Positions 42,785 to 63,827 of a DNA stretch of 64,000 nucleotides are shown here, one piece after another. Each line of letters starts with the position of its first letter. The stretch's first letter is position 1. This stretch comes from Gemmatimonadales bacterium (GTDB lineage Bacteria > Gemmatimonadota > Gemmatimonadetes > Gemmatimonadales > GWC2-71-9), in NCBI GenBank assembly GCA_036002655.1, contig DASYTD010000107.1, positions 726-64,725 on the forward strand, given 5' to 3'. The notes beneath the pieces were generated by a model, which saw only the letters and a program-made list of their open reading frames with translations, searched no databases and was not told where the DNA came from. Both the position numbers and the translations under genes were made by a program.

Positions 42785-42813
42785 AACGACCGGTCCTTTC
42801 CCTGTGCAGGCGA

Positions 42814-42885: not shown

Positions 42886-42997
42886 GAGACGCCTCGCAGG
42901 GCTTACCGACAGTCCATCCCTGCGTGTTGCACCCCCTATCTATGCACGATCCGCGCCAAAAACCGTTTTGCGGCCCGCTGCTCATCCCTTCGATGAG

Positions 42998-43044
42998 TTT
43001 GAACTAATTCTCTTGTGCCTGAAATGGCTAACTCACTAAGGTGC
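42998..43044. repeat. Copy A of an about 46-bp imperfect direct repeat flanking the GT4 gene
   Basis: Core CTAATTCTCTTGTGCCTG here versus CTAATCCTCTTGTGGCCTG at 44113-44131. Overall identity is about 70 percent by hand alignment. This copy spans the GT4 stop codon. Confidence 0.55.
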
Positions 43045-46030: not shown

Positions 46031-46070
46031 GCGCCGGCCGTTGCCATCGCAGCGGCCGGCGTTTTGCTTT
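46031..46070 (+). terminator. Rho-independent terminator between the two beta-helix genes
   Basis: 13-bp stem CGCCGGCCGTTGC (46032-46044) pairing with GCAGCGGCCGGCG (46049-46061, one G-U pair). The loop is CATC, followed by TTTTGCTTT. Confidence 0.65.
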
Positions 46071-46081
46071 CGGATAGTCGC

Positions 46082-48829: not shown

Positions 48830-49879
48830 TCAGCGAGACATCGGGACGGCGGCGGGATCGCGCCACCGGCCCCTGCCGAACAGCCCGTCGCGCAGGCCGC
48901 GAATAAAGCCGAACCCGTAGCTCAGATGCATCACAGGCAACGCCGCGGCGAGCGCGAGCGCGCAGCGCAGACTGTGTGAGCGCGCGACCGGCACGGCGCA
49001 CGCCGCGACGCCAAACGCGTACGCGGCGGCAATCGCCAATCCGGCGAACCCGGCTGGGGGCCAGAAGATCGCGCCGACGGCCGCGCCGAACAGCGCGGTG
49101 ACGAACATCGCCGGCACGAGCTGCCGCACCGTCATGATGCGCCCGACCTTGCGAGCCACGAGGGGCTTGAACGCGCCGTACTGGTAGAACATGCGCGCGG
49201 TTTGGCGCAGCGATCCGCGGGCGTAGTAGTAGCAGACGACATCCGGAATCAGCTTTACGCGGCCGCCGTGCCGAATGATCCGGTGGTTGAACTCATCGTC
49301 CTGATTGCGCACCAGCTCTTCGTCGAACATCCCGATGCGCTTGAACACGTCGCGCCGGAAGCAGCCGAACGGCACCGTATCCACGAACCGCGCTTCCTTC
49401 GCGCCGATGCGGAAATGGGCGTTCCCGACGCCAAACGGATGCCCCATCGCGATCGCGATGGCCTGCGACACGGCCGTGCCGTCCGCCGGGAGGGTGATCA
49501 AGCAGCCGCCCACATTGTCGGCGCCGCTCTCGATCAAGGCGCCGACGAGCCGCGGGATGTACTCGGGCGGATAGACGACGTGGCCATCCATGCGCACGAT
49601 GATGTCGCCCGTCGCGGCACGAATCCCGATGTTCAGCGCGGTGGGGACGATGCGTTGTGGATTGTCGAGCATCCTGATCCGCGGATTCGCCGCGGCGTAT
49701 TGCGCGATCAGCTGCCGCGTGCCGTCGGTGCTCATGCCGTCCACCACCAGCACCTCGAGCCGCTCGGCGGGATGTGCCGATGCGAGGATCGAGTCGAGGC
49801 ACGCCGCGATGTGCTGTGCCTCGTTGCGGCACGGCAGAGTCACGGTTACGCGGCGCTCCGCAGGTGGGGGCGTGATCAC
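48830..49879 (-). CDS. Glycosyltransferase family 2
   Basis: VTVTLPCRNEAQHI, VVDGMSTDGT and IVRMDGH (DxD-like) motifs. GTG 49879 overlaps the upstream stop (GTGA). The longer 514-aa ORF is rejected because its N-part overlaps the ligase gene. Confidence 0.85.
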   Translation of the reverse strand: MITPPPAERRVTVTLPCRNEAQHIAACLDSILASAHPAERLEVLVVDGMSTDGTRQLIAQYAAANPRIRMLDNPQRIVPTALNIGIRAATGDIIVRMDGHVVYPPEYIPRLVGALIESGADNVGGCLITLPADGTAVSQAIAIAMGHPFGVGNAHFRIGAKEARFVDTVPFGCFRRDVFKRIGMFDEELVRNQDDEFNHRIIRHGGRVKLIPDVVCYYYARGSLRQTARMFYQYGAFKPLVARKVGRIMTVRQLVPAMFVTALFGAAVGAIFWPPAGFAGLAIAAAYAFGVAACAVPVARSHSLRCALALAAALPVMHLSYGFGFIRGLRDGLFGRGRWRDPAAVPMSR

Positions 49880-51312
49880 GGCCGGCTCGCTCGTCTCACG
49901 CCTGCGCGCCCGACGCCGGCGCCTGCCATGCGACCGGCGAGGGCCGCCGTGCGCTCCTCTGGTGACAGCTGACACACGATGGTCCGCAACTTGCCGTTGG
50001 AAGTGCGCGGGACTTCGCTGACACGGTCCACGATCACCCGTACATCCCCCATGCGCTCCTGCAAACGCTCGACGATCGTGCGTTCGGTCACCGTGCTGAA
50101 TCCCGGCGCGGGCGTGACCCGCACGCGCAGCACGTCGAGATGCTCCTGAATGATTTGCGACTGACGCAACGGCAGTCCGTAGAAGACCGGATTCAACCAG
50201 AACACCGGCCGTCCATCGGGCGTGATCAGGACATCGTTCATGCGGCCTTCCACGCGACCCATGGGCGGCAAGCCGCGCCCGCACGCACACGGGCCGTTCC
50301 CCTGCGGCGCCTGGGCGCGGTCGCCGACGCGATAGCGGATCAGCGGCATGTCGGGATTCAACAAGCCGGTGCAAATCAGCTCACCGTGATCGTGCAGCTC
50401 GACGTGCCCGAACTCGGGCCACTGATGCAGCCGCCCGGCCGAGCATTCGCTGGCCGCCGCGACCGATTCCGCCATCCCGTACGTTTCGCGGACAGGGCAC
50501 TGGAATGCCGCGGCGATCGTGCGGCGCTGCTCCGGCAGCATCGGCTCGGCGTTCGTGTACACGGCGGCCATCCGAAGGTCGGTTCGGCCGAGCCGCACGA
50601 CTTCCTGCGCGAGGGCATGCGCCGACGAGGGATAGGACGCGAGGTACACGATCTTATAGCGCGCCAGCGCGTCGAGGTAGTACGGAATCAGATCGGGCGC
50701 CAAGTGGAATGACGACAGGTAGAGCTGCCGCATCGCGGCGTTCCACACCCAGAACGGGGGCCGCCGCTGCCGCACTGGAGTGACGAGCTGCCCACCCAGC
50801 CGCGCCCAACGGACGTGGGTGGGAATGCCGTCCCAGCGGCCCGTTCGCGCGTCGGCGATCGCGTGCAGCGTCGCCACCGTGGTCTTGGTCCGCCAGATAT
50901 CGAGCGGCTTTCCCGTCGTGCCGCTGGTCTGTTCGTGGAACATGTTGCGCGGGTCGCAATCGTCGGCGACGAAGGCGCGCGCAGTGGCGCGCACCTCGTC
51001 CTTCTCGAGGATGGGCCAGTTCTCGAGCATCTCCCACGACGCGCGGTCGCCGCGGCGGCGCCGCGCCTCCCACTGATCACGGTAGTACGGCACCCGGGTC
51101 GCGGCGCGATGCAGCACATAGGCGATGCGTTCCTCGCGCCACGTGGCCCACTGCGCCGCGGTCCAGGCGTCGCGCGCGAGCGCTTCTTCGATGAGCTGCT
51201 CGCTCTCGGCGCCGTAACGCCAACGCTTCAAGTACCAGCCCCGCAGCGTGGCGGCGGCGGAGCGTACGCGCGGAGGCAGGCGATGGTAGAGGCGCAACAG
51301 ACGGCTGTTCAT
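49876..51312 (-). CDS. PaaK / coenzyme-F390-synthetase-like adenylate-forming ligase (CapK-like), copy 1
   Basis: Adenylation P-loop EQTSGTTGKP and YGMAES. The C-terminal SNGKLR contains the conserved Lys. This family is commonly found in capsule/EPS loci. Confidence 0.85.
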   Translation of the reverse strand: MNSRLLRLYHRLPPRVRSAAATLRGWYLKRWRYGAESEQLIEEALARDAWTAAQWATWREERIAYVLHRAATRVPYYRDQWEARRRRGDRASWEMLENWPILEKDEVRATARAFVADDCDPRNMFHEQTSGTTGKPLDIWRTKTTVATLHAIADARTGRWDGIPTHVRWARLGGQLVTPVRQRRPPFWVWNAAMRQLYLSSFHLAPDLIPYYLDALARYKIVYLASYPSSAHALAQEVVRLGRTDLRMAAVYTNAEPMLPEQRRTIAAAFQCPVRETYGMAESVAAASECSAGRLHQWPEFGHVELHDHGELICTGLLNPDMPLIRYRVGDRAQAPQGNGPCACGRGLPPMGRVEGRMNDVLITPDGRPVFWLNPVFYGLPLRQSQIIQEHLDVLRVRVTPAPGFSTVTERTIVERLQERMGDVRVIVDRVSEVPRTSNGKLRTIVCQLSPEERTAALAGRMAGAGVGRAGVRRASRP

Positions 51313-53552
51313 GCCGGCCCCCCCCTCCGTGTACCCGCCGTCAGCGCGGCCATCAGCGGCAGCAGCGACAGTCGTGCGGCGCTGTGCCAGCGCCCCGATT
51401 CCAGCGTCGCGCGGAAATGTTGGAGGTACAAGCGGGCAGCCGCCGGGACCGGCGGGAAATACCGCTCCGCCCTCCGTTCGTCGGCGATCGTCTCGAATCG
51501 CGCGAGCGCGTCGCTCGGGAGGAGCGAACGCTGCGCCAGCGTCCGGTAGATGCCGTCCACGTACTGTAGGTAGCAGCCCACGGCGGGGACGATGCCGATG
51601 GATAATGCCGTGGCGAAGAGATAGTCCCAGTCCACTTGTTCCTGCCGAATTGCGTCGATCACGCTGTAAACGTCCGACAACCGGAACGCCGGACGCGTGT
51701 AGAGCTGATGCATCGCGAGCAGCAATAGCTGATCCGTTCGCGACGGCGCGAGGCAGCTCATGGTCCCAGCCGCCAAGGGGCGCGCACGCGCGAGCAACAG
51801 TCGGGCGTAGCGCGCATGCTCTCCCAACCGGCCGATCCGGCCGTGGCGGATGAGGATGCGATTGCCGTAGGCGGCGGTGTACAGGGTAACGTTTGCCAGC
51901 CGCTGGTGCAGCGGTGCGCGCCTGGGTGCGGCGGGCACGTCACCCAGAATCACCTTGTCGCTGCCGGAGGTCGGATGCCCGACCAGCAGCTCGACGGTGG
52001 GCTGCGCGTCGGGATAGGACTCGAGCGTCCGCAGGAACGCGTGCGCGATCCCCAACCGGTGGCACGCGTCGCTCAGCTGCGCCACGAGCTCGAGGACGCG
52101 CTGGGCGCTGGAACAGGCCTGCGCCGCCGCGGCGCTGAACTTCGGTGGCAACGGCTCGCCGCCGGCCTTGCTCGAGATCGCGTCCGCTACGCGCACGAGG
52201 GCGCCGCCGCGCTGCGCGGCCCTGCGCAGCTCACTCCAATCCACGTGGTCGAGGTCCCGTGGTGGCCGGGCGAGCAGCAGCTCGAGTGCCACGAGGTCGT
52301 CCGGCTGCTTCTGTGCCGCGGGCGCGAGTCGCTCGCGGCGTGTCGAGCGGAGCAGACCGGCGAGCGTCGCGCCGTTGCGCCAGAGGTCGTACCGCTCTTC
52401 CGCGCGCCGGCGGGCGCGCGCCGCGATGCGCTGCCGCTCCGGCTGATCCTGAAGCAGACGGCCGATCGCGGTGGCGAGCGCGTCGGCATTCTTGGGCGGC
52501 ACGAGCACGCCGCACCCGCCTTCGAGCGCGTCGGGAATGCCCGCGACATCGGACCCGATCACCGGCGTTCCAACCGCCATCGCCTCCCGCACGACATTCG
52601 GCAGGCCATCGCCGAGGCCGTCGGACGGATGGACCAGCAGCGTCGCCTCGCTCATGGTCTGGCGCACCTCGGCGAAGGGCAGCCAGCCGCGGAACTTCAC
52701 GCGATCGCCGATCCCGAGCTGCTCCGCCAGCGCGGCCAGATTGCGCTGCTCCTCGCCTTCACCGACGAACTCGACGACGACGTCCGTCCCGCGGCCCCTG
52801 AGCAACCCCGCGGCTCGCACCAGGTAGTCGAACCCCTTGTGCTTCGCCAGACGGCCAACGGCGAGGACGTGATTGTGCCGACGTCCGTCGGTGCGGTACG
52901 GAAACGACGCGATGTCGAGCCCGTGATGACAGACGTGAATTTTGGGTGCGAACTGCGGCGCGATATCGGCGAACGCTTGCTTCATGTACCCCACGTTGAA
53001 CTCACAACAGGTGATGATGTTGTCGGCATACAGCAGCTTCTCACGCAGAAACACCGGGGTCCGATACAGATCGGTGCCCGCATGCAGCCAAATCGAGAAC
53101 GGCACATCGGGGACGGCGAGCCGGTGAAACGCGTAGGCGCAGGTCCCGGCGTAGTTGCCCCAGTACGCGAGGACGTGATCGTATCGCGTCTGCGCCGCGG
53201 CCCAGGCCCACGCCTTCGGCAAGACGTAGGCCGTCTTGGCAAACGGCACCGGCCCGTGACGCAGCGCGCTGGCGAGGACGGCCCGCATGTCGCGGCGCAA
53301 CGTCGCGCCACCCGAGCGCAGCAGCTGTATCGCCCCGCCCAGGCTCTCGCCGAGCCGGGCGTGGTGCACGCGCTCGCGCGGCAGCTGGTCGGGTCCCAGG
53401 AGATCGAGCGAGTGGTGCCACAGCGAGGCGTCGAGCGGCGCGATCGAGAACACGTCGATCTCCACGCCGGCTTCGATGAGCGCGCGCATGTCCCGCTCGA
53501 AAAACGTCGCGACCTGAGCCGGATACCGGCTCGTGAACACGGCGAGTCTCAC
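51309..53552 (-). CDS. GT4 glycosyltransferase (WcaL-like, about aa 1-400) fused to a degenerate nucleotidyltransferase-like (NTP_transf_5-like) C-terminal domain
   Basis: The GTG 53552 start (VRLAVFTSRYPAQVATFFERDM) is paralogous to MRLAVFTSKYPA of the gene at 58145, with a GTGA overlap to the upstream gene. GT1 motif LLVHPSDGLGDGLPNVVREAMAVGTPVI. The C-terminal about 340 aa resemble the N-domain of the 62379-63827 protein, but have TVELLV where that protein has DIDLLV. Confidence 0.75.
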   Translation of the reverse strand: MRLAVFTSRYPAQVATFFERDMRALIEAGVEIDVFSIAPLDASLWHHSLDLLGPDQLPRERVHHARLGESLGGAIQLLRSGGATLRRDMRAVLASALRHGPVPFAKTAYVLPKAWAWAAAQTRYDHVLAYWGNYAGTCAYAFHRLAVPDVPFSIWLHAGTDLYRTPVFLREKLLYADNIITCCEFNVGYMKQAFADIAPQFAPKIHVCHHGLDIASFPYRTDGRRHNHVLAVGRLAKHKGFDYLVRAAGLLRGRGTDVVVEFVGEGEEQRNLAALAEQLGIGDRVKFRGWLPFAEVRQTMSEATLLVHPSDGLGDGLPNVVREAMAVGTPVIGSDVAGIPDALEGGCGVLVPPKNADALATAIGRLLQDQPERQRIAARARRRAEERYDLWRNGATLAGLLRSTRRERLAPAAQKQPDDLVALELLLARPPRDLDHVDWSELRRAAQRGGALVRVADAISSKAGGEPLPPKFSAAAAQACSSAQRVLELVAQLSDACHRLGIAHAFLRTLESYPDAQPTVELLVGHPTSGSDKVILGDVPAAPRRAPLHQRLANVTLYTAAYGNRILIRHGRIGRLGEHARYARLLLARARPLAAGTMSCLAPSRTDQLLLLAMHQLYTRPAFRLSDVYSVIDAIRQEQVDWDYLFATALSIGIVPAVGCYLQYVDGIYRTLAQRSLLPSDALARFETIADERRAERYFPPVPAAARLYLQHFRATLESGRWHSAARLSLLPLMAALTAGTRRGGPA

Positions 53553-54751
53553 ACGCGGCTCACCGTTTTGTCGCCCGTGGCGAGCGCGATGGCGAAGGCA
53601 AGCCAGAGCACCTTCGAGGCGATCCACGTGCCGCTCACGCAGCCCATGAGCGCCGTCATCAGCATCGCGAACGGCAGCATGCCGCACGGACCCTGGCGGG
53701 CGCGCCACGCGCTCGCCACGCACAGACCCAGGCCGATAAAAAACGGCAGCGTCCCCAGGAAACCGGTGGAGGACATCAGGTCGAACACGATGTTGTGCGC
53801 GTCGCGCTTGTCCTTCTTCTCTTCGCCGATGCGGGCCGCGATCTCGAACTGGTTCTCGATCGGTCCCCACCCGAGCAGCGGGCGCTCGCTGATCATGCCG
53901 ATGACGGCGGGATAGATCCGCTCCCGGCCGGCGAGCGAGCCTTCCTCGGCCGCGGCTTGGAGGCGCACCCGCATCATGTCGGATTTGAGCACGCCGAACG
54001 CCACGACGCCGAGGGCGAGGACGCCGATGCAGAGGCCCCGGATACGAGCCGCCGTGGTGCGGCCCAAACCGACGGCCCAGATCAGCAGTCCGAACGCCAA
54101 GGCGACCAGTCCGCCCCGCGATCCCGTTTGAATGATCGCGAGGCCGGTCAGCGCTCCGAGCGGCCAGGTCAGGACGCGCGGACGCAGGCTCAACAAGGTC
54201 ACGGCGCCCGCCGAGAGCACGATCGCGCTCCAGTTGGGGTTCTGCCCAAACGCGGTGACGCGCATGCCGCCGGTCCAGACTTCCCGCGCCGTGGCCCCGA
54301 TACCGAGCAGCTGCATCCCCGCGCGCACCGCCACCGCAAACGCGAACGTGATGATCACGCCGCGGAGGACGGCACGATCGCGCATCAGATTGGAGCCGGC
54401 CCAGAGGATCAGCACGAGCTGCAGCATCAGCAGGAACAGCTGGAGAATCAGCAACGTCTGCGAGCTGCGATTCACCAGCGTGCTGAGCCCGAACATCCAC
54501 AAGTAGGTGACGAACCAGAGCACCGCCCCCGGGATGCGGCGATAGCTCGCGCTCGGTTGAATGATCGTGAACAGCAGGAAGATCGCGCCCGTGATCGTGG
54601 GGATTTCCACCGGGAACGTCCGCTGGGGCAGCTCGAACGGAATCGACAGGACGAAGAGGTACAACGCGGCGCGCACGAACGGATTGACGGCGCTCTTCGC
54701 TCCGGCGGCGACGTACGCGGGAAACGACGCGACGCCGGCGTTAGTGGCCAT
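53549..54751 (-). CDS. O-antigen ligase/polymerase family membrane protein (Wzy-like)
   Basis: About 10 TM segments with a central periplasmic loop region (IIQTGSRGGLVALAF...) typical of the Wzy_C/O-antigen ligase family. Confidence 0.75.
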   Translation of the reverse strand: MATNAGVASFPAYVAAGAKSAVNPFVRAALYLFVLSIPFELPQRTFPVEIPTITGAIFLLFTIIQPSASYRRIPGAVLWFVTYLWMFGLSTLVNRSSQTLLILQLFLLMLQLVLILWAGSNLMRDRAVLRGVIITFAFAVAVRAGMQLLGIGATAREVWTGGMRVTAFGQNPNWSAIVLSAGAVTLLSLRPRVLTWPLGALTGLAIIQTGSRGGLVALAFGLLIWAVGLGRTTAARIRGLCIGVLALGVVAFGVLKSDMMRVRLQAAAEEGSLAGRERIYPAVIGMISERPLLGWGPIENQFEIAARIGEEKKDKRDAHNIVFDLMSSTGFLGTLPFFIGLGLCVASAWRARQGPCGMLPFAMLMTALMGCVSGTWIASKVLWLAFAIALATGDKTVSRV

Positions 54752-55475
54752 TGCGATGGCGGGTAAGCGTCGCCCGCAGCCGGGCGGCGCTCCGATTGAG
54801 GTGGCCGTCGGTCCGCACCTCGTCCACCGCCAACTGCCCGGTGCGACTCAGCTCGGCGATGACGGTGTCGAATGCCTTCCGGAAGCCGGCCGCGAACCGC
54901 CGGATCGCGACGTCGCTCCCCTTCATCATGCGGTGCTTCTTGGCGCGGGTGCGAATGCGGCCGGCCAACGTCGTGTCGCGCGCGTCGAGGAAAATCACGG
55001 AGTCGAGCAGCACGGACCACTTGGCGAGGGCGCGGCGGCGCCATTTGGCGGGCGCCTGCGCGCCACGCTTGGCAAACGAGAGATCGAGCCAGCTGATCCC
55101 AAACACCGGTCCCTCATCGAGGAGGATGATTCGATGCCGCGACTTCTCGCGGCGCAGAACACGACGTAACGCATCCAGCCGGATCATGTGGGCGATTTCG
55201 CGCCAGCGCAGACGGCGCTTGCGCACGGCTGCCACCACGATCGTGGGAACGAGCGCGAGGGCGCCCCTGACCAGACGCGAGCGGGGGAGCCCCCAGATAC
55301 TGAGTCCGACATGCACGCTGGAGTCAGCGCGGTGGACATTCTGGGCGAGCGTTGTTTTGCCGGCGCCCGCCGGACCCACCAACTCTACGACCACTGACCC
55401 ATTCCTCTGTGATCCACCCCGCTGCTGTGCACGAAGCGGGCCGCGCCGAGCTCCTCCCGGGGATTTAGTTCGCAT
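54741..55475 (-). CDS. Uncharacterised P-loop NTPase/kinase-like protein, copy 1
   Basis: Walker A GPAGAGKTT and Walker B-like IILLDEGPVF. It is a paralog of 61708-62382, and both end in RNGH. I cannot name any characterised family. Confidence 0.6.
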   Translation of the reverse strand: MRTKSPGGARRGPLRAQQRGGSQRNGSVVVELVGPAGAGKTTLAQNVHRADSSVHVGLSIWGLPRSRLVRGALALVPTIVVAAVRKRRLRWREIAHMIRLDALRRVLRREKSRHRIILLDEGPVFGISWLDLSFAKRGAQAPAKWRRRALAKWSVLLDSVIFLDARDTTLAGRIRTRAKKHRMMKGSDVAIRRFAAGFRKAFDTVIAELSRTGQLAVDEVRTDGHLNRSAARLRATLTRHRNGH

Positions 55476-56880
55476 GGGCGACCGCGGCGCTCATGCTCCG
55501 AGCGAGCGCGTCTTGACGCTGCGCCGCAGTCAGCTGGCAGAGGACGGCGCGCAGCTTTCCGTTGGCACTGCGGGGAAGGACATCCACGCGCTCGACCAGG
55601 ACCCGGACTTCGCCCATCCGCTCGCGCACGTTCACGGCGATGCTGCGTTCGTGAGCATCCGAGAAACCGGGGGCGGGGGCGACCCGCACGCGCACCAGGT
55701 CGAGCTGCTCCTGGATGATCTGCGCCTCGCGAATCGCTTCCATACCGTCGAAGATCGGGTCGAGCGATCCGATCGTTCTGCCATCGGCGGTGACCAGCAC
55801 CTCATCGCTGCGCCCTTCAATCGTCTCGAGGGCCGGCAGCGTCCGCCCGCAGGAGCAGGGCGTCGGATTGGCGACGAGTCGTCCGCGATCCCCCACGCGG
55901 TAGCGGATGAGCGGCATGTCGGCATTCAACAAGCCGGTGCACATCAGCTCACCGTCCGGGAGCCGCTCGATGTGTCCGATCTCGGGCCACTGGTGCAGGC
56001 GGCCGGCCGCGCACTCGCTTGCCGCGGCGACGCTTTCCGCCATGCCGTACGTCTGGCGCACGGGACACTGAAACGCCGCCGCCATCGCCTGACGTTGTTC
56101 GGGCGAGAGGGCTTCGGCGTTGGTATAGACGGCGAGCAGCCGCAGATCGCGCCGTCCCAGCCGGATGGCTTCGCGCGCCAAGGCCTGGATCGCGGAGGGA
56201 TAGCCGGAGATGTAGGCGACGCGATACCACGCCAGCGCGTCGAGGTAATGCGGGATGAGATCCGGCGCGAGATGATACGATGACATGTACAACTGCCGCA
56301 TCGCGGCATTCCAGACCCAGAAGGGCGGACGGCGCTGCGGCACGGGTGTGACGAGCCGGCCACCGAGTCGCGCCCAACGGGCATTCTGCGGAACGCCATC
56401 CCATCCGCGCGTGCGCGTCGTCGCGATCGCGTACAGCGTGGTCAACGTCGCGCGCGAGCGCCACAGCTGCAGCGGCGTGCCGGTCGTCCCGCTGGTTTGC
56501 TCCGGCAGCATGCGACGAGGATCGCAGTCCTCCGCCAGGAAGCCGCGCGGGTTGACGCGCAACGGCTCCTTCTCGAGCAGCGGCCAGTTCTCGAGCAGCT
56601 CCCACGAGGCCTGATCGCCGTGGCGGCGGCGCGCCGCCCAATACTGGCGGTAGTAAGGAACGGTCGTGGCGGCGCGATGCAGGACGAACGCCAGCCGCTC
56701 CTCGCGCCAACTCTGCCACTGCGACGCGCTCCAGCGGTCGCGTTCCAGGGTTTCCTCGGCCAGCCGCGCCCGCGCGGCGCCGCTGCGCCAGGCCTTGAGG
56801 TACCACCCGCACAAGCTGGCGGTCAGCGTCCGGGCGGTCGCGGGCAGCGCGTGATAGAGCGAGAGGAGATGGGCGTTCAT
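55465..56880 (-). CDS. PaaK / F390-synthetase-like adenylate-forming ligase, copy 2
   Basis: EQTSGTTGTP, YGMAES and ANGKLR motifs. Long identical blocks are shared with copy 1 (RRPPFWVWNAAMRQLY). ATG 56880 overlaps the upstream stop (ATGA). Confidence 0.85.
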   Translation of the reverse strand: MNAHLLSLYHALPATARTLTASLCGWYLKAWRSGAARARLAEETLERDRWSASQWQSWREERLAFVLHRAATTVPYYRQYWAARRRHGDQASWELLENWPLLEKEPLRVNPRGFLAEDCDPRRMLPEQTSGTTGTPLQLWRSRATLTTLYAIATTRTRGWDGVPQNARWARLGGRLVTPVPQRRPPFWVWNAAMRQLYMSSYHLAPDLIPHYLDALAWYRVAYISGYPSAIQALAREAIRLGRRDLRLLAVYTNAEALSPEQRQAMAAAFQCPVRQTYGMAESVAAASECAAGRLHQWPEIGHIERLPDGELMCTGLLNADMPLIRYRVGDRGRLVANPTPCSCGRTLPALETIEGRSDEVLVTADGRTIGSLDPIFDGMEAIREAQIIQEQLDLVRVRVAPAPGFSDAHERSIAVNVRERMGEVRVLVERVDVLPRSANGKLRAVLCQLTAAQRQDALARSMSAAVAHAN

Positions 56881-58145
56881 CGGGTCAACGCCAGGGAGGG
56901 GCGTGAGGCCCGGGACGCGGAACGACGCTTCGCCCGCAAGATCGCGGCGAGCCGGACGCCGTTCTGCCACATGTCGTAGTGCTCATCCACGCGCCGGCGT
57001 GCGCGAACCGCGATCGCGCGGCGCTCGTCCGGATCCATGAGGAGCCGATTCAGAGCGGCAGCGAGTGCGCCGACGTCCTGCGGCCGCACCAGGACCCCGC
57101 ACCCGTCCCGCAACGCATCGGGGATGCCGGCCACGCGTGACGCCACGACCGGCGCACCGAGCGCCATGGCTTCACGCAGCACATTGGGTAGGCCGTCCCC
57201 CAGGCCGTCCGAGGGATGCACGAGCAGCGTGGCCCGTTGCATCGCGTCGCGCACACCGTTGAAGGGCTGCCAGCCGCGGAACTCGACACGCTGGGCGATG
57301 CCGAGATCGGCGGCGAGCCGTTCCAGCGCAGCGCGTTCGTCTCCATCGCCGATGATCTCGACCCGGACATCGGTGCCGCGCGCGATCAGGACGTGCGCCG
57401 CGCGAATCAGGTAGTCAAAGCCCTTGCGCTGCGACAACGCCCCGACGCCGAGCAGGCGATTCGTGTCACGCCCGTCGAGGCGATGGGGAAACTCGGCGAG
57501 ATTCAGGCCGTGATGGGAGACGTGGAGTTTCTTCGCGAGGCGCGGTACGCCGGCGAACTGTTTCAGGATGTACGCCTGATTGAATTCGCAGCACGTGATC
57601 ACGTTGTCGGCGTAGCGGAGCTTCTCCTCCATGAACACCGGAGCGCGATAGAGATCCGTTCCCGCGTGGAGCCAGATGGAAAACGGCGCGCGCGGCGCCG
57701 CCAGCCGATGAAACGCGTACGCGCAGGTGCCCGCGTAATTCCCCCAATAGCCGAGCACGTGGTCGTAGCGGACGCCGGAGCTTGCCGCTTGCGCCGCCCA
57801 TGCCCACGCCTTGGGAAGCGCGTATGCCGTCATGGCGAGACGCACGGGGCCGTAGCGCGCGGCCGACCGCAGCGTCGCCCAGGCGTCGGACAGCGCGGTT
57901 CGGAACCGGCGCAAGACCGGAACGGCGCTGCGCAGCGCCGAGCCGATCGTCAGGTGGTGCACCCGCTCGCGCGGCAGCTGCGCGGGACTGAGCAGCTCGA
58001 GCGCGTGCTGCCAGGCGCTCTCCTCCAGCGGAGAGATCGCGAACACGTCGATCTCGATCCCTGTTTCGAGCAGGGCACGCATGTCCCGCTCGAAGAAAGT
58101 CGCGATCCGCGCCGGGTATTTGCTCGTGAAGACCGCCAGTCTCAT
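56877..58145 (-). CDS. GT4 glycosyltransferase (WcaL-like), copy 2, without a C-terminal extension
   Basis: MRLAVFTSKYPARIATFFERDMRAL N-terminus and GT1 motif LLVHPSDGLGDGLPNVLREAMALGAPVV. ATG 58145 was chosen within a longer ORF. Confidence 0.85.
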   Translation of the reverse strand: MRLAVFTSKYPARIATFFERDMRALLETGIEIDVFAISPLEESAWQHALELLSPAQLPRERVHHLTIGSALRSAVPVLRRFRTALSDAWATLRSAARYGPVRLAMTAYALPKAWAWAAQAASSGVRYDHVLGYWGNYAGTCAYAFHRLAAPRAPFSIWLHAGTDLYRAPVFMEEKLRYADNVITCCEFNQAYILKQFAGVPRLAKKLHVSHHGLNLAEFPHRLDGRDTNRLLGVGALSQRKGFDYLIRAAHVLIARGTDVRVEIIGDGDERAALERLAADLGIAQRVEFRGWQPFNGVRDAMQRATLLVHPSDGLGDGLPNVLREAMALGAPVVASRVAGIPDALRDGCGVLVRPQDVGALAAALNRLLMDPDERRAIAVRARRRVDEHYDMWQNGVRLAAILRAKRRSASRASRPSLALTR

Positions 58146-58167
58146 CCGGGCTCCCCCTCCCCCTCCA

Positions 58168-60141
58168 TCACCAGGACAACTCGTAATCCCGCATCCACAA
58201 CTCCAGCGCCAGCAGCGTGAACACACGCTGATACAGGCCCGTGTGGCTGATTTCACCGCCTTCTCGTCCGGACGAGGCGCGGAAGCGAGTGACCCAGTCG
58301 CGAATCAACGCGCGATTCAGGAACCACCCGACGCGCGCATCGCCACCCAGAAGCAGGTCATCGCATGCGGTGGCGATCGCGGACGTCGCCAACAAATCGG
58401 GAGGAACGGCGAAGCCGTGCTTCGGGTGCCGGGCCACGCTGCGCGGCAGCCACTGCTGCGCCACGGCACGGAGGACCAGCTTGCCCTGCCGTCCGTTCGT
58501 CTTCAGCCGGTGCGGCAGCGTCAGGCCGACGTCCACGACCTCTTCATCGAGGAACGGCACCCGCACCTCGATGCCCGCGCGCATGCTCATCATGTCCACC
58601 TTGCGCAGCATGTCGGACGGCAGCCCCACCGCAAACACCTTGTCGGTCATGCGGCGCGACAGCTCCTCGAGGTCCTCCACACCCGCGGGACGAAAGCCGT
58701 CGAAGTGGCGATAGACCGGCAGGATCTGTTGGGCCGCCGCCGGCAGCAGCAACTCCGCTTTCTGGTCTTCCGCCAGATAGTTCGACAGCCCCGCGAGCAG
58801 CACCGACGAGTCGGCGCGGCCGGCTTCGGCCAGGACTGTCGCCTTCGCCAGGTGCCGTCCGAGATCGCGCGTCCACGGCGTCAGCGCCGATCCGGCGGAG
58901 TGCACCGCGGTGCGCGCCCACGCCGGCAAGCGCATCAGCTGCATCAGCCGATTCGCGCGCCAGAAGCGGTGGTAGCCGCCGAATGCCTCGTCGCCGCCGT
59001 CCCCCGAGAGCGCGCAAATGATGCCCTGCTCGCGAATGGCGCGAGACACCCAGTACATCGGGATGCAGCTCGTGTCCGCAAACGGCTGGTCGAAGTGCCG
59101 CAGGATGCCGATGACCGTGTCCGGGGTCAGCGACCAATCGCGTGGCTCGATGACGTGATGCTGCGTCCCGAAATGACGAGCGACGGCAAGAGCCAGCGGC
59201 GTCTCGTCGGCACCGGGGATGGGGAATCGCACATTGAATGTCGTCGCGTTGCGCCGCTCGGACGTTCCATCCGTCGTCCAGCTGTGGGCGGCTACGACGA
59301 GCGACGAGTCGATGCCGCCCGAGAGCAGCCCCGCGACCGGCACGTCGGCTTCCGACTGGCTGCGTACGGCGCCGATCAGCTTCTTGCCCGCCTGGTCCGC
59401 CGCCGCGTCGAGCGTGCGCGTTGCATCGGGGCGCGCCGCGACCCGGTGGTAGGTCTGCATGCGACTGCCGCCGTCGCCGGCGATCAGCAGCGTTCCCGCG
59501 GGCAGCGCCTGGATCTCGGTGAAACCGGTGGCCGGCTCGGGGACGTATCCGAGCCCGAGAAAATCGCAGCAGGCCTGCCGGTCGAGCGTCGGCCGAAAGT
59601 GGGGCAGGGCGGTGATCGCCTTGATCTCGCTCGCGAACACCAGCTGTCCCTCGCGCGTCGCGTAGAACAGGGGCTTGACGCCGAAGCGATCGCGCGCGAG
59701 CAGCAAGCGGCGCCCCCCCCGCCCCCCACGCCCCCCCCGCCCCCCCCGGCGGGCATCGTAGATCGCGAACGCGAAGATGCCGCGCAGGTGCTCGACGAGA
59801 CGCTCACCGCGCTCCTCGTAGAGATGAACGAGCACTTCCGTGTCGCTGCGCGAACGGAAGACGTGGCCGCGCGCGGCCAGCAGGTCGCGCAGATCGTGGT
59901 GGTTGTAGATCTCGCCGTTGAACACGACCCAGATGTCCCCGGTCTCGTTCGCCAGCGGCTGCGCGCCGGCGGGCGAGAGGTCGATCAGCGCCAGCCGGCG
60001 ATGCACCAGCTCGCACTGATCGTCTACCCAGTGCCCGGCACCGTCAGGGCCACGGTGCGCGAGCAGGTGATCAGCGCGAGCGTGCCATCCCGGGGCAGGG
60101 GGCAACCGGTTGGCGTGAAACCGTCCGGCGATACCGCACAT
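58168..60141 (-). CDS. asnB: Asparagine synthase (glutamine-hydrolysing) family amidotransferase
   Basis: The MCGIAG N-terminal nucleophile follows Met 60141. Also has the GATase-II region (VFNGEIYNHHDLR) and the PP-loop SGGIDSS. Length 657 aa. Confidence 0.9.
   Translation of the reverse strand: MCGIAGRFHANRLPPAPGWHARADHLLAHRGPDGAGHWVDDQCELVHRRLALIDLSPAGAQPLANETGDIWVVFNGEIYNHHDLRDLLAARGHVFRSRSDTEVLVHLYEERGERLVEHLRGIFAFAIYDARRGGRGGRGGRGGRRLLLARDRFGVKPLFYATREGQLVFASEIKAITALPHFRPTLDRQACCDFLGLGYVPEPATGFTEIQALPAGTLLIAGDGGSRMQTYHRVAARPDATRTLDAAADQAGKKLIGAVRSQSEADVPVAGLLSGGIDSSLVVAAHSWTTDGTSERRNATTFNVRFPIPGADETPLALAVARHFGTQHHVIEPRDWSLTPDTVIGILRHFDQPFADTSCIPMYWVSRAIREQGIICALSGDGGDEAFGGYHRFWRANRLMQLMRLPAWARTAVHSAGSALTPWTRDLGRHLAKATVLAEAGRADSSVLLAGLSNYLAEDQKAELLLPAAAQQILPVYRHFDGFRPAGVEDLEELSRRMTDKVFAVGLPSDMLRKVDMMSMRAGIEVRVPFLDEEVVDVGLTLPHRLKTNGRQGKLVLRAVAQQWLPRSVARHPKHGFAVPPDLLATSAIATACDDLLLGGDARVGWFLNRALIRDWVTRFRASSGREGGEISHTGLYQRVFTLLALELWMRDYELSW
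59712..59748. repeat. Four tandem GGR/RGG-encoding units made of C8/C6/C8/C8 homopolymer runs (+ strand) inside asnB
   Basis: The + strand reads GCCCCCCCC GCCCCCC ACG CCCCCCCC G CCCCCCCC GG. This encodes RRGGRGGRGGRGGRR between the conserved FAIYD and LLARDRFG motifs. Confidence 0.9.
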
Positions 60142-61718
60142 CAGCCTGTATGACGCAATCCGGCGACCATGGTTCGCACGCGTCCGATGATGACCCGCCG
60201 GTCGCCTGGGGTCGGGCCAAAAAAGAGCGTCACCGCGGCAAAGCAGGCGAAGCTCAACGCCACTCCGCCGATCCACACCGGCCAGCTCGGCGCGACAATC
60301 GTGCGCCCGGCGATGTTAGCCGCCGCGAACAGGAGAGCGGTCATGAGCGCCATGCGAATGGCAGCGAGCCGTTCGGCCATGTTCTGTTTCGGTTTCTGGA
60401 GGCAGGAGTGGACGATCAAGGGATACGAGACCGATTGGATCGCGCGGCCTGCGAGCAGGCCGAGGCAGATTCCTGCGATGCCCAAGGCATGGGTGAGCAA
60501 AATGCCCAGGGCGAGAGTGGCGACGACGGTGACCGCGCCGAACAGCACCCGCGCGCGCGGGCGAAGTGCGGCATCAATGATGTAGGAGTCGGTGCGAATG
60601 AAAGCGGTTTGCAGAACGACGCAGACGATGAGCAGGTCCACCCAGGGCCCTGCGTAATTTCGCGAGCCAACCCAGAGGTGCAAGAACGAGTGGTTCCACA
60701 CGAGGATCGTGGCGCCGATGACCGTCGTGAACAGCCACGTGAGCATGCGCAGCTCGTGACGGATCTTCACGGCGCTGGCGAATTTTCTCTCGCCCAGCAC
60801 CCCGCCCAGGCCCGGCATGGCGGCGCCGGCCGTAAACACAAAAACCCCAAGCCCCGTGCGCGCGGCATAGCCCGTCAGGACGTAGGTCGTGACCGCCGCG
60901 GGAGAGATGATCCATCCGAGAATGAGCACGTCGCTCGCCAGCAGCAGCTTGGCGACGAGGTCGCCGGCCGAGAGCCAGACGCTCATGCCGAAGAGGCTCT
61001 TGATGGCGTCGCGGGTCGGTTTCCCAACACGGAACCACGGGACGTACTTGCGAACCAGCACCCAGAACACGACGCCGGTGATGAACGCGCGCGCGATCTG
61101 CGAGGCGCCCATGCCCGGCAACCCAAAGCCCGCTTTCACGACCCACGCGGCGAGGGCACCCACGATGATGCTGAGGGCGGCCTGCAGCCCCATGCGCTTG
61201 TAACCGAGGTTCATGCCGCGGAGCACGGACTCGGGGACCGCGGCGAGGCCGGTGAAGATGAAGCTCACGACCAGTAGCGCGCAGGTGAGGCGCACCGCGG
61301 TGCGGCTGGCTTCCGGTGCGTGTGTGATGGACGGTGCGAGCCACGCGAGCGCGCCGCCTACGACGGCCACCAGGGGCAGCATCAGGATCCAGACGGCCAG
61401 CGCGGCGCCTACACTGCGGCGCTTTACGGCATCATCGGCTCCCTGCTGCTGCGCGATCACCAGCCGCAGTGCCTCGGTCGGCCGGCCATCGGCGGCAGCC
61501 ATGTACCCGATCAGGCGCCCCAGCATTTCCCACATGCCGTAGAGCGAGCGTCCCAACCCGCCCACGAGAATGGGCGTGATGATGAGTTGCACGATCGCCT
61601 TCACGCTGTAGTCGAGCAGCGAGGCGACCGCCGTCAATGAGGCACGGCGCGTCAGCGTGGCTGGGCGGCGTACTGGCTCAGCGGCAAGGGGAGCGGCGAA
61701 GCCGGCGTCAGTGCCCAT
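60141..61718 (-). CDS. Polysaccharide/oligosaccharide flippase (MOP superfamily, Wzx-like)
   Basis: 525-aa protein with about 12-14 TM segments. The N-terminal pattern (LLDYSVKAIVQLIITPILVGGLGRSLYGMW) is typical of polysaccharide biosynthesis (Wzx/MATE-like) proteins. Confidence 0.78.
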   Translation of the reverse strand: MGTDAGFAAPLAAEPVRRPATLTRRASLTAVASLLDYSVKAIVQLIITPILVGGLGRSLYGMWEMLGRLIGYMAAADGRPTEALRLVIAQQQGADDAVKRRSVGAALAVWILMLPLVAVVGGALAWLAPSITHAPEASRTAVRLTCALLVVSFIFTGLAAVPESVLRGMNLGYKRMGLQAALSIIVGALAAWVVKAGFGLPGMGASQIARAFITGVVFWVLVRKYVPWFRVGKPTRDAIKSLFGMSVWLSAGDLVAKLLLASDVLILGWIISPAAVTTYVLTGYAARTGLGVFVFTAGAAMPGLGGVLGERKFASAVKIRHELRMLTWLFTTVIGATILVWNHSFLHLWVGSRNYAGPWVDLLIVCVVLQTAFIRTDSYIIDAALRPRARVLFGAVTVVATLALGILLTHALGIAGICLGLLAGRAIQSVSYPLIVHSCLQKPKQNMAERLAAIRMALMTALLFAAANIAGRTIVAPSWPVWIGGVALSFACFAAVTLFFGPTPGDRRVIIGRVRTMVAGLRHTG

Positions 61719-62382
61719 TGCGGCGCTTCGTCAGCCTGGCCATCAGGCGCGCGGTGTTTTCGTCAACAGGGTCGGACTCGGTGCTCAACGTGTCCACCAC
61801 GACGTGGCCGGCCTGCGAGAGCTCGCCGATGGCTCGCTCGAACGCGCGCCGGAATCCCGCCGCGAAGCCGAGGATCTCGGCATCGGGCAGGTGTTTCACC
61901 ATGTGGGGTTTCTCGCGCTCGCGAATCCGGTTGGCCAGCGTGATGTCCGATGCATCGATGAACACGACGACGTCGAGCAGCGTCGCCCATTCGGCGATGA
62001 CGCGGCGGCGCCAGGATGCGGGAACGTGATCTCCCTTGCGGGAGAAAAACACTTCGAGCCAGCTCAAGGCGAACACCGGTCCTTCGTCCAGGATGATGAC
62101 GCGGTGCCGAACGGCCTCGGCCTCCACGACGCGGCGCAGCGCGCCGAGCCGGACCATTTGGGCGATTTCGCCCGCGCTGAGCGGCGAGCGATTGATTCCC
62201 GCGCCGAGAATGGTCGGCAACAGCGCGATGGCGCTTTGCATCAGCCGGCGCCGCGGTAGTCCCCACAAGCTCAAGCCCGACCGCACCGTGGAGTCCGCCG
62301 CACTGACCCCCTGGGCAAGCGTGGTCTTCCCCGCGCCGGCCGGTCCGACCAGCTCCACAACGACGGCTCTGGCTCTGCTCAC
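61708..62382 (-). CDS. Uncharacterised P-loop NTPase/kinase-like protein, copy 2
   Basis: Walker A GPAGAGKTT and VIILDEGPVF. It is a paralog of 54741-55475. GTG 62382 overlaps the upstream stop (GTGA). Confidence 0.6.
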   Translation of the reverse strand: MSRARAVVVELVGPAGAGKTTLAQGVSAADSTVRSGLSLWGLPRRRLMQSAIALLPTILGAGINRSPLSAGEIAQMVRLGALRRVVEAEAVRHRVIILDEGPVFALSWLEVFFSRKGDHVPASWRRRVIAEWATLLDVVVFIDASDITLANRIREREKPHMVKHLPDAEILGFAAGFRRAFERAIGELSQAGHVVVDTLSTESDPVDENTARLMARLTKRRNGH

Positions 62383-63827
62383 AGCGTGCTCCAGAGCTCC
62401 GCTTTGAGCGAGGCGACGACCTGTGGCAACGGCTGCGCGGCATCCACGATGCGCGCCCCGCTACGGCTCCAATCGGTCTCGGCAGTCAGACGGGCGCGCT
62501 CGCGGACGTAATCCGCCGGCTCCGTCGGCTTGCGGCTGACGGCGGTCTCCGCATCGAGGCGCAGCAAGAAGACGACATCGGGCGCGGCCATGCGCTCGTA
62601 GAACCGCCGCTCCCATTTCCGCAGAGCGGTTGCGAACCCGGATTGCGCGCCGAGGGCGTGGCCCTGGACTTCGCTCGGGCCGGCCAGCGCCCAACTCTCG
62701 GGAAGCGGGTAGCGCTCACAGATGGCGATGCCACCGCCGGTAGCGAAGCGGTGAGCGCGGCGATACAGCGCGTACCGGTCGCGCGCGGTACATCCGCACC
62801 GCAGCAGCTCCAAGTGCGCGATCGTGTTGGACGAGGCACCGAGGCGCCGCAGCAGCTGCAGCGCGCCGCCGACGACGAGCGTCGCCAGGCTGCGCGTGGG
62901 GCGGCCGAGATGGAGGTGCAACGTGGCGATCGATGACTCGAGCCAGGCTTCGAGTGCGTCGGCACACGTGGATTTGCCCGAGCCGTCTCCGCCGAGCAGC
63001 GCGACCACCGAGCCGCCGCTGGCGAGCCGCTGGCCGGTGGGGCGAATGCGACGCCAGATCCGCTCCGCCACGCCGAACACCGCCGGCCGGCTCGCGTGCG
63101 CGGACAAGGCGCGGGCCAGCGCGATCCGGATGGCGACCCGGCGCCATGCGGGGCAGCCGGACTGGAGCGAGGCGCGGCACTTCGAGAACAGCGACAGGCT
63201 GACCTCGGGCAGATGCCGGCGCAGCGCCGCGTCGACGTGCTCGGGAGCGGCCTGCTCCTCGAGCCGATCGATCTCGTTCAACGCGCCGTCGAGCCAGCGC
63301 GGCGATGTCCGGCGCAGCGAGTCGCGCAGCATGTGGCGCAACGACAGCCGCAGAATGGCGACGATCAGTTCGAGCTCCGGAGCCGCTGTTTTGAATACCG
63401 CGGCGGTGCCGCCCCTCGATTGCGAGGATTCGAGCAGCGCCCGCTCCAGCGGCAACCGATAATGCGTCCGCCACGGCAAGCCGATCACGAGCCGCTGATA
63501 GACATGCAGATGGATCAGCTGGCCGGTGCGTTCGTCGAGACCGAAGCAGTGCACGATCCCGGCCGCTTCTCGACCGGACGGCGGCAGCGCCAGCTTGAAG
63601 CCCAAACCCGCGACCGCAGCGGCGAAGTCGGACCATGACCCGCTCTCGACGAGCAGGTCGATGTCGCCGCGGCCGCTCTCCCAGCGCTCGCGTTTGCCGT
63701 GGCCCTTCCACTGACAGTAGGAGACGCCACGGTTCGCCAGTGCCGCGCCGAGCCGCGCGACCAACGGCGCCGGCATCGTCGCACCGGGGCGGGGCGGTGT
63801 GGCGGTCGGCAGCATGCTCAATGACAC
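62379..63827 (-). CDS. Two-domain protein: nucleotidyltransferase-like (NTP_transf_5-like) N-domain plus a P-loop kinase-like C-domain
   Basis: The N-domain has the GRGDIDLLVE motif I associate with the uncharacterised nucleotidyltransferase family. The C-domain has Walker A GGDGSGKST and a thymidylate-kinase-like layout. The start is GTG 63827 or ATG 63815. Confidence 0.6.
   Translation of the reverse strand: MSLSMLPTATPPRPGATMPAPLVARLGAALANRGVSYCQWKGHGKRERWESGRGDIDLLVESGSWSDFAAAVAGLGFKLALPPSGREAAGIVHCFGLDERTGQLIHLHVYQRLVIGLPWRTHYRLPLERALLESSQSRGGTAAVFKTAAPELELIVAILRLSLRHMLRDSLRRTSPRWLDGALNEIDRLEEQAAPEHVDAALRRHLPEVSLSLFSKCRASLQSGCPAWRRVAIRIALARALSAHASRPAVFGVAERIWRRIRPTGQRLASGGSVVALLGGDGSGKSTCADALEAWLESSIATLHLHLGRPTRSLATLVVGGALQLLRRLGASSNTIAHLELLRCGCTARDRYALYRRAHRFATGGGIAICERYPLPESWALAGPSEVQGHALGAQSGFATALRKWERRFYERMAAPDVVFLLRLDAETAVSRKPTEPADYVRERARLTAETDWSRSGARIVDAAQPLPQVVASLKAELWSTL

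Follow-up and report, generated by a model that had tools for sequence, protein, structure and literature searches.

The window analyzed here is the whole of a 64,000-nucleotide stretch from an uncultured soil Gemmatimonadales bacterium (GenBank assembly GCA_036002655.1, contig DASYTD010000107.1), and the subject of this work is a set of minus-strand genes between positions 49876 and 62382. An earlier reading of this DNA, hereafter the original prediction, had described these genes as a candidate polysaccharide-decoration system. Each gene was found on the minus strand at the position assigned to it, the domain calls made for Wzx, Wzy_C, AsnB, the GT4 glycosyltransferases, the AMP-binding/PaaK-like ligases and the deacetylase agree with Pfam/NCBIfam, and the assignment of the locus to polysaccharide assembly and decoration was supported. 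From approximately 63.8 kb down to 47.5 kb, 13 genes are tightly packed on this strand (Table 1), with most neighbors overlapping by 1, 4 or 11 nt and the widest gap being 22 nt. A flippase of the MOP family and a Wzy_C polymerase are encoded in the one locus, with all of the models concerned (PF01943/PF13440 and PF04932) above cut-off. Taken together, it is probable that a single long Wzx/Wzy-dependent heteropolysaccharide operon, of exopolysaccharide or O-antigen type, has its core in this interval, that its glycan is decorated with amides, that a P-loop/nucleotidyltransferase (NTase) module accompanies the flippase and the polymerase, and that the paralogous genes of the locus originated in separate events.

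Table 1. Features of the locus, from up1 to the last operon gene, followed by its distal part
Feature	Position	Strand	Product and remarks
up1	62379..63827	-	NTase-like (PF14907-like) N-terminal domain and thymidylate-kinase-like P-loop C-terminal domain; outside the interval of the original prediction
PloopA	61708..62382	-	224 aa, soluble; P-loop nucleoside/nucleotide-monophosphate-kinase fold (predicted); 4-nt overlap with up1, 11-nt overlap with Wzx
Wzx-type (MOP family) flippase	60141..61718	-	525 aa; PF01943 32.8 bits (cut-off 28.2), PF13440 31.5 bits (cut-off 23)
AsnB-family glutamine-dependent amidotransferase	58168..60141	-	657 aa; TIGR01536; candidate enzyme for uronic acid to uronamide
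GT4A, WcaL/EpsE-like GT4	56877..58145	-	422 aa; PF00534/PF13692; best models NF041876 and TIGR04005, below cut-offs
ligA, CapK-family adenylate-forming ligase, lineage alpha	55465..56880	-	471 aa; PF00501
PloopB, second small P-loop kinase-fold protein (predicted)	54741..55475	-	244 aa from ATG 55475; likelier 217 aa from GTG 55394
Wzy-type polymerase (O-antigen ligase-like)	53549..54751	-	400 aa; PF04932 Wzy_C 74.4 bits (cut-off 31.7)
GT4B-PF14907 fusion	51309..53552	-	747 aa; GT4 about 52350-53552, NT5 about 51309-52349
ligB, CapK-family adenylate-forming ligase, lineage beta	49876..51312	-	478 aa; PF00501
GT2 glycosyltransferase	48830..49879	-	PF00535 99 bits; true start overlaps the ligB stop; kept after the ligase in relatives
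Polysaccharide deacetylase (CE4)	48005..48817	-	PF01522 66.7 bits; position conserved in relatives
GT4 N-terminal domain only	47530..48015	-	161 aa; PF13439/PF13579; last operon gene
Big_2-Metallophos phosphoesterase	41390-42985	-	Pfam; distal part of locus
GT4	43028-44074	-	Pfam; distal part of locus
Two Big_2/beta-helix proteins	44310-46013 and 46064-47533	+	Pfam; distal part of locus

Related loci were identified by a pattern scan in which each species was represented by a single genome and which returned 44 loci, nearly all of them in Gemmatimonadales metagenome-assembled genomes. Additional contigs of relatives were fetched by exact protein look-up, and synteny was examined over 48 loci. 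The order common among the relatives is up1, P-loop, Wzx, Wzy, AsnB, GT4, NT5 (the PF14907 domain), one or more ligases, GT2 and deacetylase. In the closest relatives (76 to 90% identity) the order is up1, PloopA, Wzx, AsnB, PloopB, Wzy, GT4B with NT5, ligB and GT2; these loci have both P-loop genes and are without GT4A-ligA. A short metagenomic contig, L053, carries in succession genes resembling GT4A (77%), ligA (79%) and PloopB (69%), and thus the GT4A-ligA-PloopB junction of the window occurs in a second organism. The number of CapK ligases per related locus ranges from one to four, with two in L010 and L048 and four in L047. In L047 (GCA_009772005.1, WNGC01002068.1) the ligase genes are interleaved with GT2 genes and a gene for a Pel9A-like beta-helix protein. 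The short last gene of the operon, which encodes only the N-terminal domain of a GT4, appears to be a conserved gene and not a broken remnant, as the same gene (163 aa) follows the deacetylase in L048.

Neither a priming phosphoglycosyltransferase nor nucleotide-sugar genes were found within the window, which stops at up1. The absence of sugar-nucleotide genes, noted for the window in the original prediction, is probably an effect of the window edge, as in L052, an 80%-identical locus, such genes adjoin up1 on its upstream side. There, a PglF/CapD-like dehydratase, a DegT aminotransferase, a formyltransferase and a PIG-L deacetylase are encoded together with a small priming transferase (Bac_transf), a protein in which FemAB-like/Acetyltransf_6 and ATP-grasp domains are fused, an fn3 protein and two PKD-Metallophos proteins. 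More distant relatives harbor the same upstream set, with the priming transferase sometimes fused to a Metallophos domain (L050 6048-7694 and L051 1-4087, the latter locus also with PKD repeats). The FemAB-like/ATP-grasp fusion is 750 aa long, lies between the priming transferase and up1 (L052 3587-5863, also in L050 and L051) and is a further candidate aminoacyl-decorating enzyme. Judged from the genes of the window and its relatives together, the system appears to be a complete Wzx/Wzy pathway with several more amide-forming enzymes.

A second type of locus was also identified. In its representative L029, the order is Wzx, an up1-like gene, an AsnB-like gene, P-loop, Wzy, a thymidylate kinase (TMK)-like gene and an ATP-grasp gene.

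Origin of the paralogous genes

The original prediction had described two consecutive gene runs as one segmental duplication of a four-gene cassette. The three paralog pairs on which this was based, whose order on that strand is the same in both runs, are real, with BLASTP E values of 2e-83 to 0 that are well past chance. In pairwise comparisons, ligA and ligB share 63.7% identity over 466 aa (E = 0), GT4A and the N-terminal 407 aa of the GT4B fusion share 63.7% over 411 aa (E = 1e-178), and PloopA and PloopB share 55.7% over 219 aa (E = 2e-83). The peptides quoted as identical between members of these pairs were found in the translations, except that ILLDEGPVF was inexact, PloopA having IILDEGPVF. 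At the nucleotide level the pairs are 61 to 69% identical, and identity at third codon positions is 44 to 52%, against 37% expected from base composition. Synonymous sites are near saturation, and the copies are therefore old.

A single recent duplication in situ of the [P-loop]-[membrane]-[GT4]-[ligase] cassette, with later divergence of the copies, would explain both the shared gene order and the presence of three pairs at 56 to 64% identity, but it is highly improbable given the age of the copies and was rejected on the basis of bootstrapped neighbor-joining trees and synteny. In these trees, ligA and ligB were never recovered as sisters (0/60 replicates); ligA clustered with the first ligase of L010, L047 and L048 in 59/60 replicates, and ligB clustered with its close orthologs in all 60. 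Likewise, GT4A grouped with the single GT4 of L010, L047, L048, L014 and L015 in 100/100 replicates and with the GT4B clade in none. PloopB and its orthologs formed a clade sister to all orthologs of PloopA, and PloopB is present in five relatives that are without GT4A-ligA (L001 to L003, L005 and L006), which indicates that it arose separately. As the groupings of the ligases, the GT4s and the P-loop proteins disagree with a common origin, the three pairs did not arise from one event. Moreover, the membrane genes of the two runs are from unrelated families (Wzx and Wzy), and the distance between copies differs from pair to pair (6970, 4593 and 5568 nt).

From the trees and the gene orders, the GT4 and ligase copies appear to be old lineages that have been combined differently between loci, with the P-loop duplication separate from them, so that at least two old events would be involved. 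That the trees are all neighbor-joining trees is a point against this reconstruction. The GT4A-ligA pair is either ancestral, with loss in L001 to L006, or was recombined in from an L010-like lineage; its composition gave no sign of foreign origin (GC content of 0.70, compared with 0.68 to 0.69 in the neighboring stretches).

Ligases, the AsnB homolog and probable amide decoration

Both ligases match the AMP-binding family PF00501 marginally (30.5 bits for ligA and 30.0 bits for ligB, with a cut-off of 29.9). The CapK_C family (PF27533.1) is annotated in precomputed data on two proteins: P0391, whose sequence is that of ligA (100% identity), and the L001 ortholog of ligB (90% identity). Enzymes of the ANL superfamily are recognized by the motifs A3 (T[ST]GTTGxP), A5 (YGxxE), A7 (GD), the A8 hinge (GRxxD) and the A10 Lys, and the translations of both ligases contain EQTSGTTG(T/K)P, TYGMAE, RYRVGD, EGR(SDE/MND)V and (A/S)NGKLR. 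Identification as PaaK was rejected, with scores of 50.1 and 41.6 bits for TIGR02155 against a cut-off of 646.3, as was identification as coenzyme F390 synthetase (TIGR03335; 16.5 and 18.9 bits against 458.7). It is accordingly very unlikely that the two proteins are genuine acyl-coenzyme A (acyl-CoA) ligases of the PaaK/F390-synthetase-like kind that feed acyl-CoA to a polymer-decorating acyltransferase. The best PDB and NCBIfam matches are indeed phenylacetate-CoA ligases and a DVU_1553-family CoA ligase, and phenylacetate-CoA ligase is the label given to these proteins in the source databases; however, besides the scores far below the family cut-offs, the proteins fall in the separate CapK_C family, and Pfam annotation of the operon revealed no acyltransferase that depends on CoA.

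The best match to ligA among 72,556 plasmid and secondary-replicon records, and its best match in a cultured organism, is a gene of Vibrio sp. THAF191d (L049:12004-13332). It lies between an acetyltransferase gene and a GT4 gene in a vps-type cluster, which is the position of VpsH. This cluster encodes WecB, a ManNAc dehydrogenase, equivalogs of VpsD (NF038255) and VpsF (NF038256) that score above the cut-offs, a flippase, the acetyltransferase, the ligase, the GT4, a protein of unknown function and a WecG-like transferase. Both ligA (32% identity, E 1e-74) and ligB (33% identity, E 7e-64) align over their full length with the vps-cluster ligase, and the relationship is one of homology within a family and not of orthology. 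In Vibrio cholerae, deletion and liquid chromatography-mass spectrometry of lipid-linked intermediates have shown that the PaaK/CapK-like protein VpsH is needed for the glycine amide on the GulNAcA residue of a bactoprenyl-PP-linked disaccharide (2026; PMC13463779). By analogy, ligA and ligB may adenylate a carboxylate and then form an amide. Because the two belong to different old lineages, their specificities probably differ.

The AsnB homolog contains GATase_6/7 and Asn_synthase domains, scores 414.8 bits for TIGR01536 (cut-off 267.1) and begins with MCGIAG, so that the nucleophilic Cys is present. Its relatives WbpS, WbqG and PGN_1234 form uronamides, and one of these AsnB-like enzymes is encoded beside wzx in Porphyromonas gingivalis (PMC7468200). 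A lasso-peptide cluster, in which an AsnB-like protein would be associated with a kinase and a PF14907 protein, was considered as an alternative identity for these genes and rejected: the GATase domain of AsnB is intact and the protein passes the asparagine synthase model, the lasso cyclase model gives 204 bits against 525, and no precursor or B genes are present.

The presence of ligases of the CapK/VpsH type together with a WbpS-like AsnB and a deacetylase supports amide decoration of a glycan made by Wzx and Wzy. The original prediction had put forward ATP-dependent acyl/aminoacyl or amide decoration; of these, amide chemistry is the role with the best support for the ligases and AsnB, given the precedents of VpsH and of WbpS/WbqG and full-length homology at 32 to 33% identity. 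Several points weigh against it. The evidence for VpsH is genetic and not biochemical, and the substrate is not transferable from VpsH, as the ligases of the window are only about 32% identical to the vps-type enzyme. AsnB scores 406.7 bits (E 2e-121) for the WbpS-family model TIGR03108 (eps_aminotran_1), below the cut-off of 816.9, and neither the window nor the flanks examined yielded a dehydrogenase that would form a uronic acid. Literature searches returned no paper on the surface-polysaccharide chemistry of Gemmatimonadota.

It is also possible, though we think it unlikely, that the ligases act in the reverse sense, adenylating a free carboxylic or amino acid and N-acylating an amino sugar from which the deacetylase has taken the N-acetyl group. 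This alternative was suggested by chemistry described for a deacetylase and for aminoacyl transfer onto a sugar amine, with deacetylation by VimE and acyl transfer by VimA as the precedent (PMC7468200). Conservation of the CE4 deacetylase beside the ligase/GT2 block would fit, as would the PIG-L deacetylase and DegT aminotransferase genes of the relatives, which imply free sugar amines, and the activation of small free acids by relatives of PaaK. On the other hand, VpsH, the sole homolog in a polysaccharide locus to have been studied genetically, puts an amino acid on a sugar carboxylate, and the related loci already contain, in the FemAB-like/ATP-grasp protein, an enzyme that could carry out N-aminoacylation. 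Amide formation on a sugar carboxylate is preferred. With one to four CapK/VpsH-type ligases per locus, AsnB, deacetylases and, in the relatives, the FemAB-like/ATP-grasp protein, the glycan is predicted to be unusually rich in amides and amino acids.

The P-loop and nucleotidyltransferase-like proteins

The small P-loop proteins, to which the original prediction could assign no function, matched no curated Pfam or NCBIfam family above cut-off (AAA_33 and AAA_18 were sub-threshold), and their profile gave only Walker A matches to PDB sequences. A tblastn search of PloopA against plasmids returned nothing. The AlphaFold2 (AF2) model of PloopA has a mean predicted local distance difference test score (pLDDT) of 85.5, and Foldseek matched it to adenylate, deoxyadenosine, dTMP and shikimate kinases at template-modeling (TM) scores of 0.5 to 0.6. 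On the strength of this model, the small P-loop proteins are predicted to have a nucleotide-kinase fold. A Walker A motif (GPAGAGKTT), an acidic LDEGP motif and an Arg-rich RIRxRxKxH motif are conserved among them. PloopB orthologs were identified in L001 to L003, L005, L006, L052 and L053. The GTG start of PloopB (Table 1) is the likelier because the orthologs are 217 to 220 aa long, the L053 protein aligns from residue 28, and a Shine-Dalgarno-like AGAGGAA sequence lies upstream. An identical 11-nt overlap occurs at four junctions of the operon, namely, PloopA/Wzx, ligA/PloopB (with the start at ATG 55475), PloopB/Wzy and deacetylase/GT4-N.

The product of up1 combines two domains. Its N-terminal domain has no Pfam match of its own; however, homologs at 46 to 52% identity carry PF14907 and PF02223 in precomputed annotation, and hhalign paired this domain with the PF14907 domain of the GT4B fusion (probability 81%, E 1.2e-5). 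Residues G42, D55, D57 and D98 are invariant in 26 homologs, which is the pattern of Pol-beta-type NTases. The AF2 model of up1 has a pLDDT of 87.7, and its top Foldseek matches in the PDB, without exception thymidylate kinases, fall on the C-terminal domain; the kinase domain dominated this search, and the N-terminal domain was not matched separately. The resemblance to thymidylate kinases is one of fold only, as the models score below their cut-offs (PF02223, 21.1 bits against 27; TIGR00041, 18.3 against 83), although this C-terminal domain has a GxDGxGKST loop of the TMK type and a DRY-like motif (ERY). At 29% identity to PloopA, the C-terminal domain (up1C) is a third, distant paralog of the small P-loop proteins.

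A second PF14907 (NTP_transf_5) domain constitutes the C-terminal 340 aa of the GT4B fusion (35.3 bits, cut-off 31.2); in most relatives the GT4 and NT5 are separate genes. The fusion has TVELLV where up1 has DIDLLV and where L010 and L012 keep DIDLL. This domain may be noncatalytic in this clade. Literature searches on PF14907, or on a flippase with a thymidylate kinase and an NTase, yielded nothing relevant beyond one phosphonate survey, which describes a gene-cluster family that combines a thymidylate kinase with PF14907. We take PsmN, from the pseudomycoidin cluster, to be a member of PF14907. This protein, described as an uncharacterised NTP transferase, puts a hexose on a phosphate installed by the kinase PsmK and requires two Asp residues (PMC6993621).

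Synteny over the 48 loci revealed that up1 directly precedes 36 of the 47 P-loop genes with room upstream and that a Wzx (26) or Wzy (18) gene directly follows 44 of the 47. The conserved partners of the P-loop gene are thus up1 upstream and Wzx or Wzy downstream, and the earlier description, in which it opens a [P-loop]-[membrane]-[GT4]-[ligase] cassette, was not upheld. An exhaustive profile search returned 1,160 clusters (50% identity) at an E value of ≤1e-3. Among the top matches, checked against the proteins of the window, were fusions of P-loop and Wzx (P0161, P0188 and P0200), of flippase, NTase, TMK-like domain and P-loop (P0143 and P0514), of NTase, TMK-like domain and P-loop (P0133), and of flippase and P-loop (P0146). 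The window Wzx is 48 to 53% identical to the flippase part of P0161, P0188 and P0200. The P0161 cluster is present in both JGI and ENA assemblies and is the only fusion cluster from independent sources. From the synteny and the fusions it follows that the module is a conserved companion of the flippase and the polymerase.

The pathway could operate as follows. A lipid-linked repeat unit would be built at the cytoplasmic face by the two WcaL/EpsE-like GT4s, the GT2 and further GT4s. The AsnB homolog would convert a carboxyl group to a primary amide (a uronamide), as WbpS does, and the two CapK/VpsH-type ligases would form an acyl-adenylate and use it to link an amino acid or an amine, following the example of VpsH, after which the finished unit would be flipped by Wzx and polymerized by Wzy. 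A small protein of predicted kinase fold precedes each membrane gene, as part of a conserved module of the PF14907-like NTase plus thymidylate-kinase-like domain, the small P-loop protein and Wzx or Wzy. Tentatively, this module might be a phosphotransfer or nucleotidyl-transfer device that, at the flippase and the polymerase, gates the lipid-linked unit or acts upon it. A more specific proposal is that the NTase/TMK-like fusion and the small P-loop proteins form a new cytoplasmic accessory machine, which either places a phosphate or nucleotide tag on the lipid-linked unit or provides ATP gating of flipping and polymerization, with the tag removed outside the cytoplasm by PKD/Big_2-Metallophos phosphoesterases. 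The tag was suggested by the recurrence in these loci of such phosphoesterases, which are described as secreted (one is encoded at 41390-42985), and the proposal as a whole is speculative and improbable on present evidence. Points that count against this overall reading of the locus are that the NT5 domain of the GT4B fusion is without the first catalytic Asp and aligns with no third Asp, that the acceptor substrates of the module cannot be read from sequence, and that some of the fusions could be frameshift artifacts, being mostly metagenomic singletons and in some cases in the native gene order.

MOP flippases are not known to need ATP. This counts against the alternative that the P-loop proteins and up1 are nucleotide-binding regulatory or energizing subunits of Wzx and Wzy, acting in ATP-dependent gating or assembly with no catalysis on the glycan. 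Near-obligatory adjacency to Wzx or Wzy, with overlapping frames that possibly reflect translational coupling, and the existence of fusions to the flippase are what such subunits would lead one to expect. We nevertheless find this role doubtful, as the Arg-rich LID, the DRY-like ERY motif of up1C and the intact NTase triad of the up1 N-terminal domain point to catalysis on a small substrate. Sulfation, with a 3'-phosphoadenosine-5'-phosphosulfate-like donor generated by the NTase and the kinase, was considered and rejected, as sulfotransferase genes lie beside the module in one non-Gemmatimonadales contig only (L043) and no sulfotransferase was found in the window or in the annotated Gemmatimonadales loci (L029, L047, L048 and L050 to L052). 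In L043 (5944-9938), which is labeled as a Nitrosomonas sp. metagenome-assembled genome, a Wzc-like tyrosine kinase gene is followed by up1-like and P-loop genes and then by the two sulfotransferase genes; the contig also encodes a protein with a type IX secretion system sorting domain, which is odd for Nitrosomonas.

The kinase-fold/NTase module is the part of the locus most deserving of attention. It is uncharacterized, with approximately 1,160 clusters at 50% identity, and is without a Pfam family of its own or a sequence-related solved structure. Its association and fusion with Wzx and Wzy provide a testable handle on the coupling of flipping and polymerization to cytoplasmic chemistry, and, were the tag or gating reading true, a pathway for which no such control is believed to be needed would contain a nucleotide-dependent control step. 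Bacteria of the Gemmatimonadota abound in soil. The locus family offers a natural series of ligase paralogs for work on specificity, in a family with one genetically studied member so far.

Flanking genes and comparison with known systems

Positions 1 to 41 kb of the window contain housekeeping genes, including those for UvrB, Tol-Pal, TatC/LptD, HutH, FtsK, AccC and a sigma-54 activator. One open reading frame of 1186 aa (13001-16561, plus strand) contains both TatC (aa 11-222) and LptD_2 (aa 482-949) and represents either two genes read together or an uncommon fusion. The sigma-54 enhancer-binding protein gene (37757-39814, plus strand) is about 1.6 kb from the locus, and a gene for a sigma-54 response regulator (L029 174-1682) directly precedes the type II locus L029; this adjacency in both loci hints at sigma-54 control. 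In the distal part of the locus, the N terminus of the first beta-helix protein contains the residues LVAC, a putative lipobox-like signal. Genes for Pel9A-like beta-helix and PKD-Metallophos proteins recur across the related loci.

Five kinds of known system were compared with the locus. Exopolysaccharide loci of the PEP-CTERM/exosortase (XrtA) kind resemble it in that the next-best matches of AsnB and the GT4s are the XrtA-associated models TIGR03108, TIGR03088 and TIGR04063 and in that a sigma-54 activator is nearby. This identity was rejected, as all three models are below their cut-offs and neither the window, for which the original prediction had already noted the lack of an exosortase, nor the flanks of the relatives showed an exosortase, a PEP-CTERM protein or EpsH.

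For the P-loop proteins, the comparison is with thymidylate, adenylate and deoxynucleoside kinases, with fold matches at TM scores of 0.5 to 0.6 for PloopA and target-normalized TM scores of 0.6 to 0.7 for up1C. The Walker A motif and the Arg-rich LID of nucleoside monophosphate kinases are common to both. In contrast to those kinases, the proteins of the window are 11 to 25% identical to them, score below cut-off for the family models and have an extra helical insert; the small P-loop proteins have DEG in place of the DRY of TMK, and their context is polysaccharide export and not nucleotide metabolism. Pairing of a kinase with an NTase-like protein, as in the module, is also a feature of PsmK and PsmN of pseudomycoidin; there, however, the kinase is HPrK-like and acts on a peptide, whereas the partners in the window are TMK/adenylate kinase-like and in a glycan context.

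Like WbpS, WbqG and PGN_1234, the AsnB homolog of the window is glutamine dependent by annotation, with an N-terminal Cys, and is encoded beside wzx as in P. gingivalis, but it reaches half the cut-off score of the WbpS family and passes only the general asparagine synthase model. The Vibrio polysaccharide (VPS) system differs from the locus in several respects: the window has two ligases of different lineages, and its relatives up to four; no UDP-ManNAc dehydrogenase or epimerase genes were seen at the locus; and the Vibrio cluster examined is without the P-loop or NTase module. As in the window, assembly of the V. cholerae VPS is Wzx/Wzy dependent and proceeds on a lipid carrier, and VpsH adjoins the GT4 VpsI, in the company of the flippase VpsE and the polymerase VpsF (PMC13463779), just as the ligases of the window adjoin GT4s. 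The vps-cluster ligase shares with ligA and ligB the motifs TSGTTGxPL, P(F/Y)W, MSS(F/Y)HL, PL(I/V)RYRxGD, CxCGR and NGK. The part of the locus made up of the ligases, the GT4s and AsnB belongs to a known, barely characterized kind of system.

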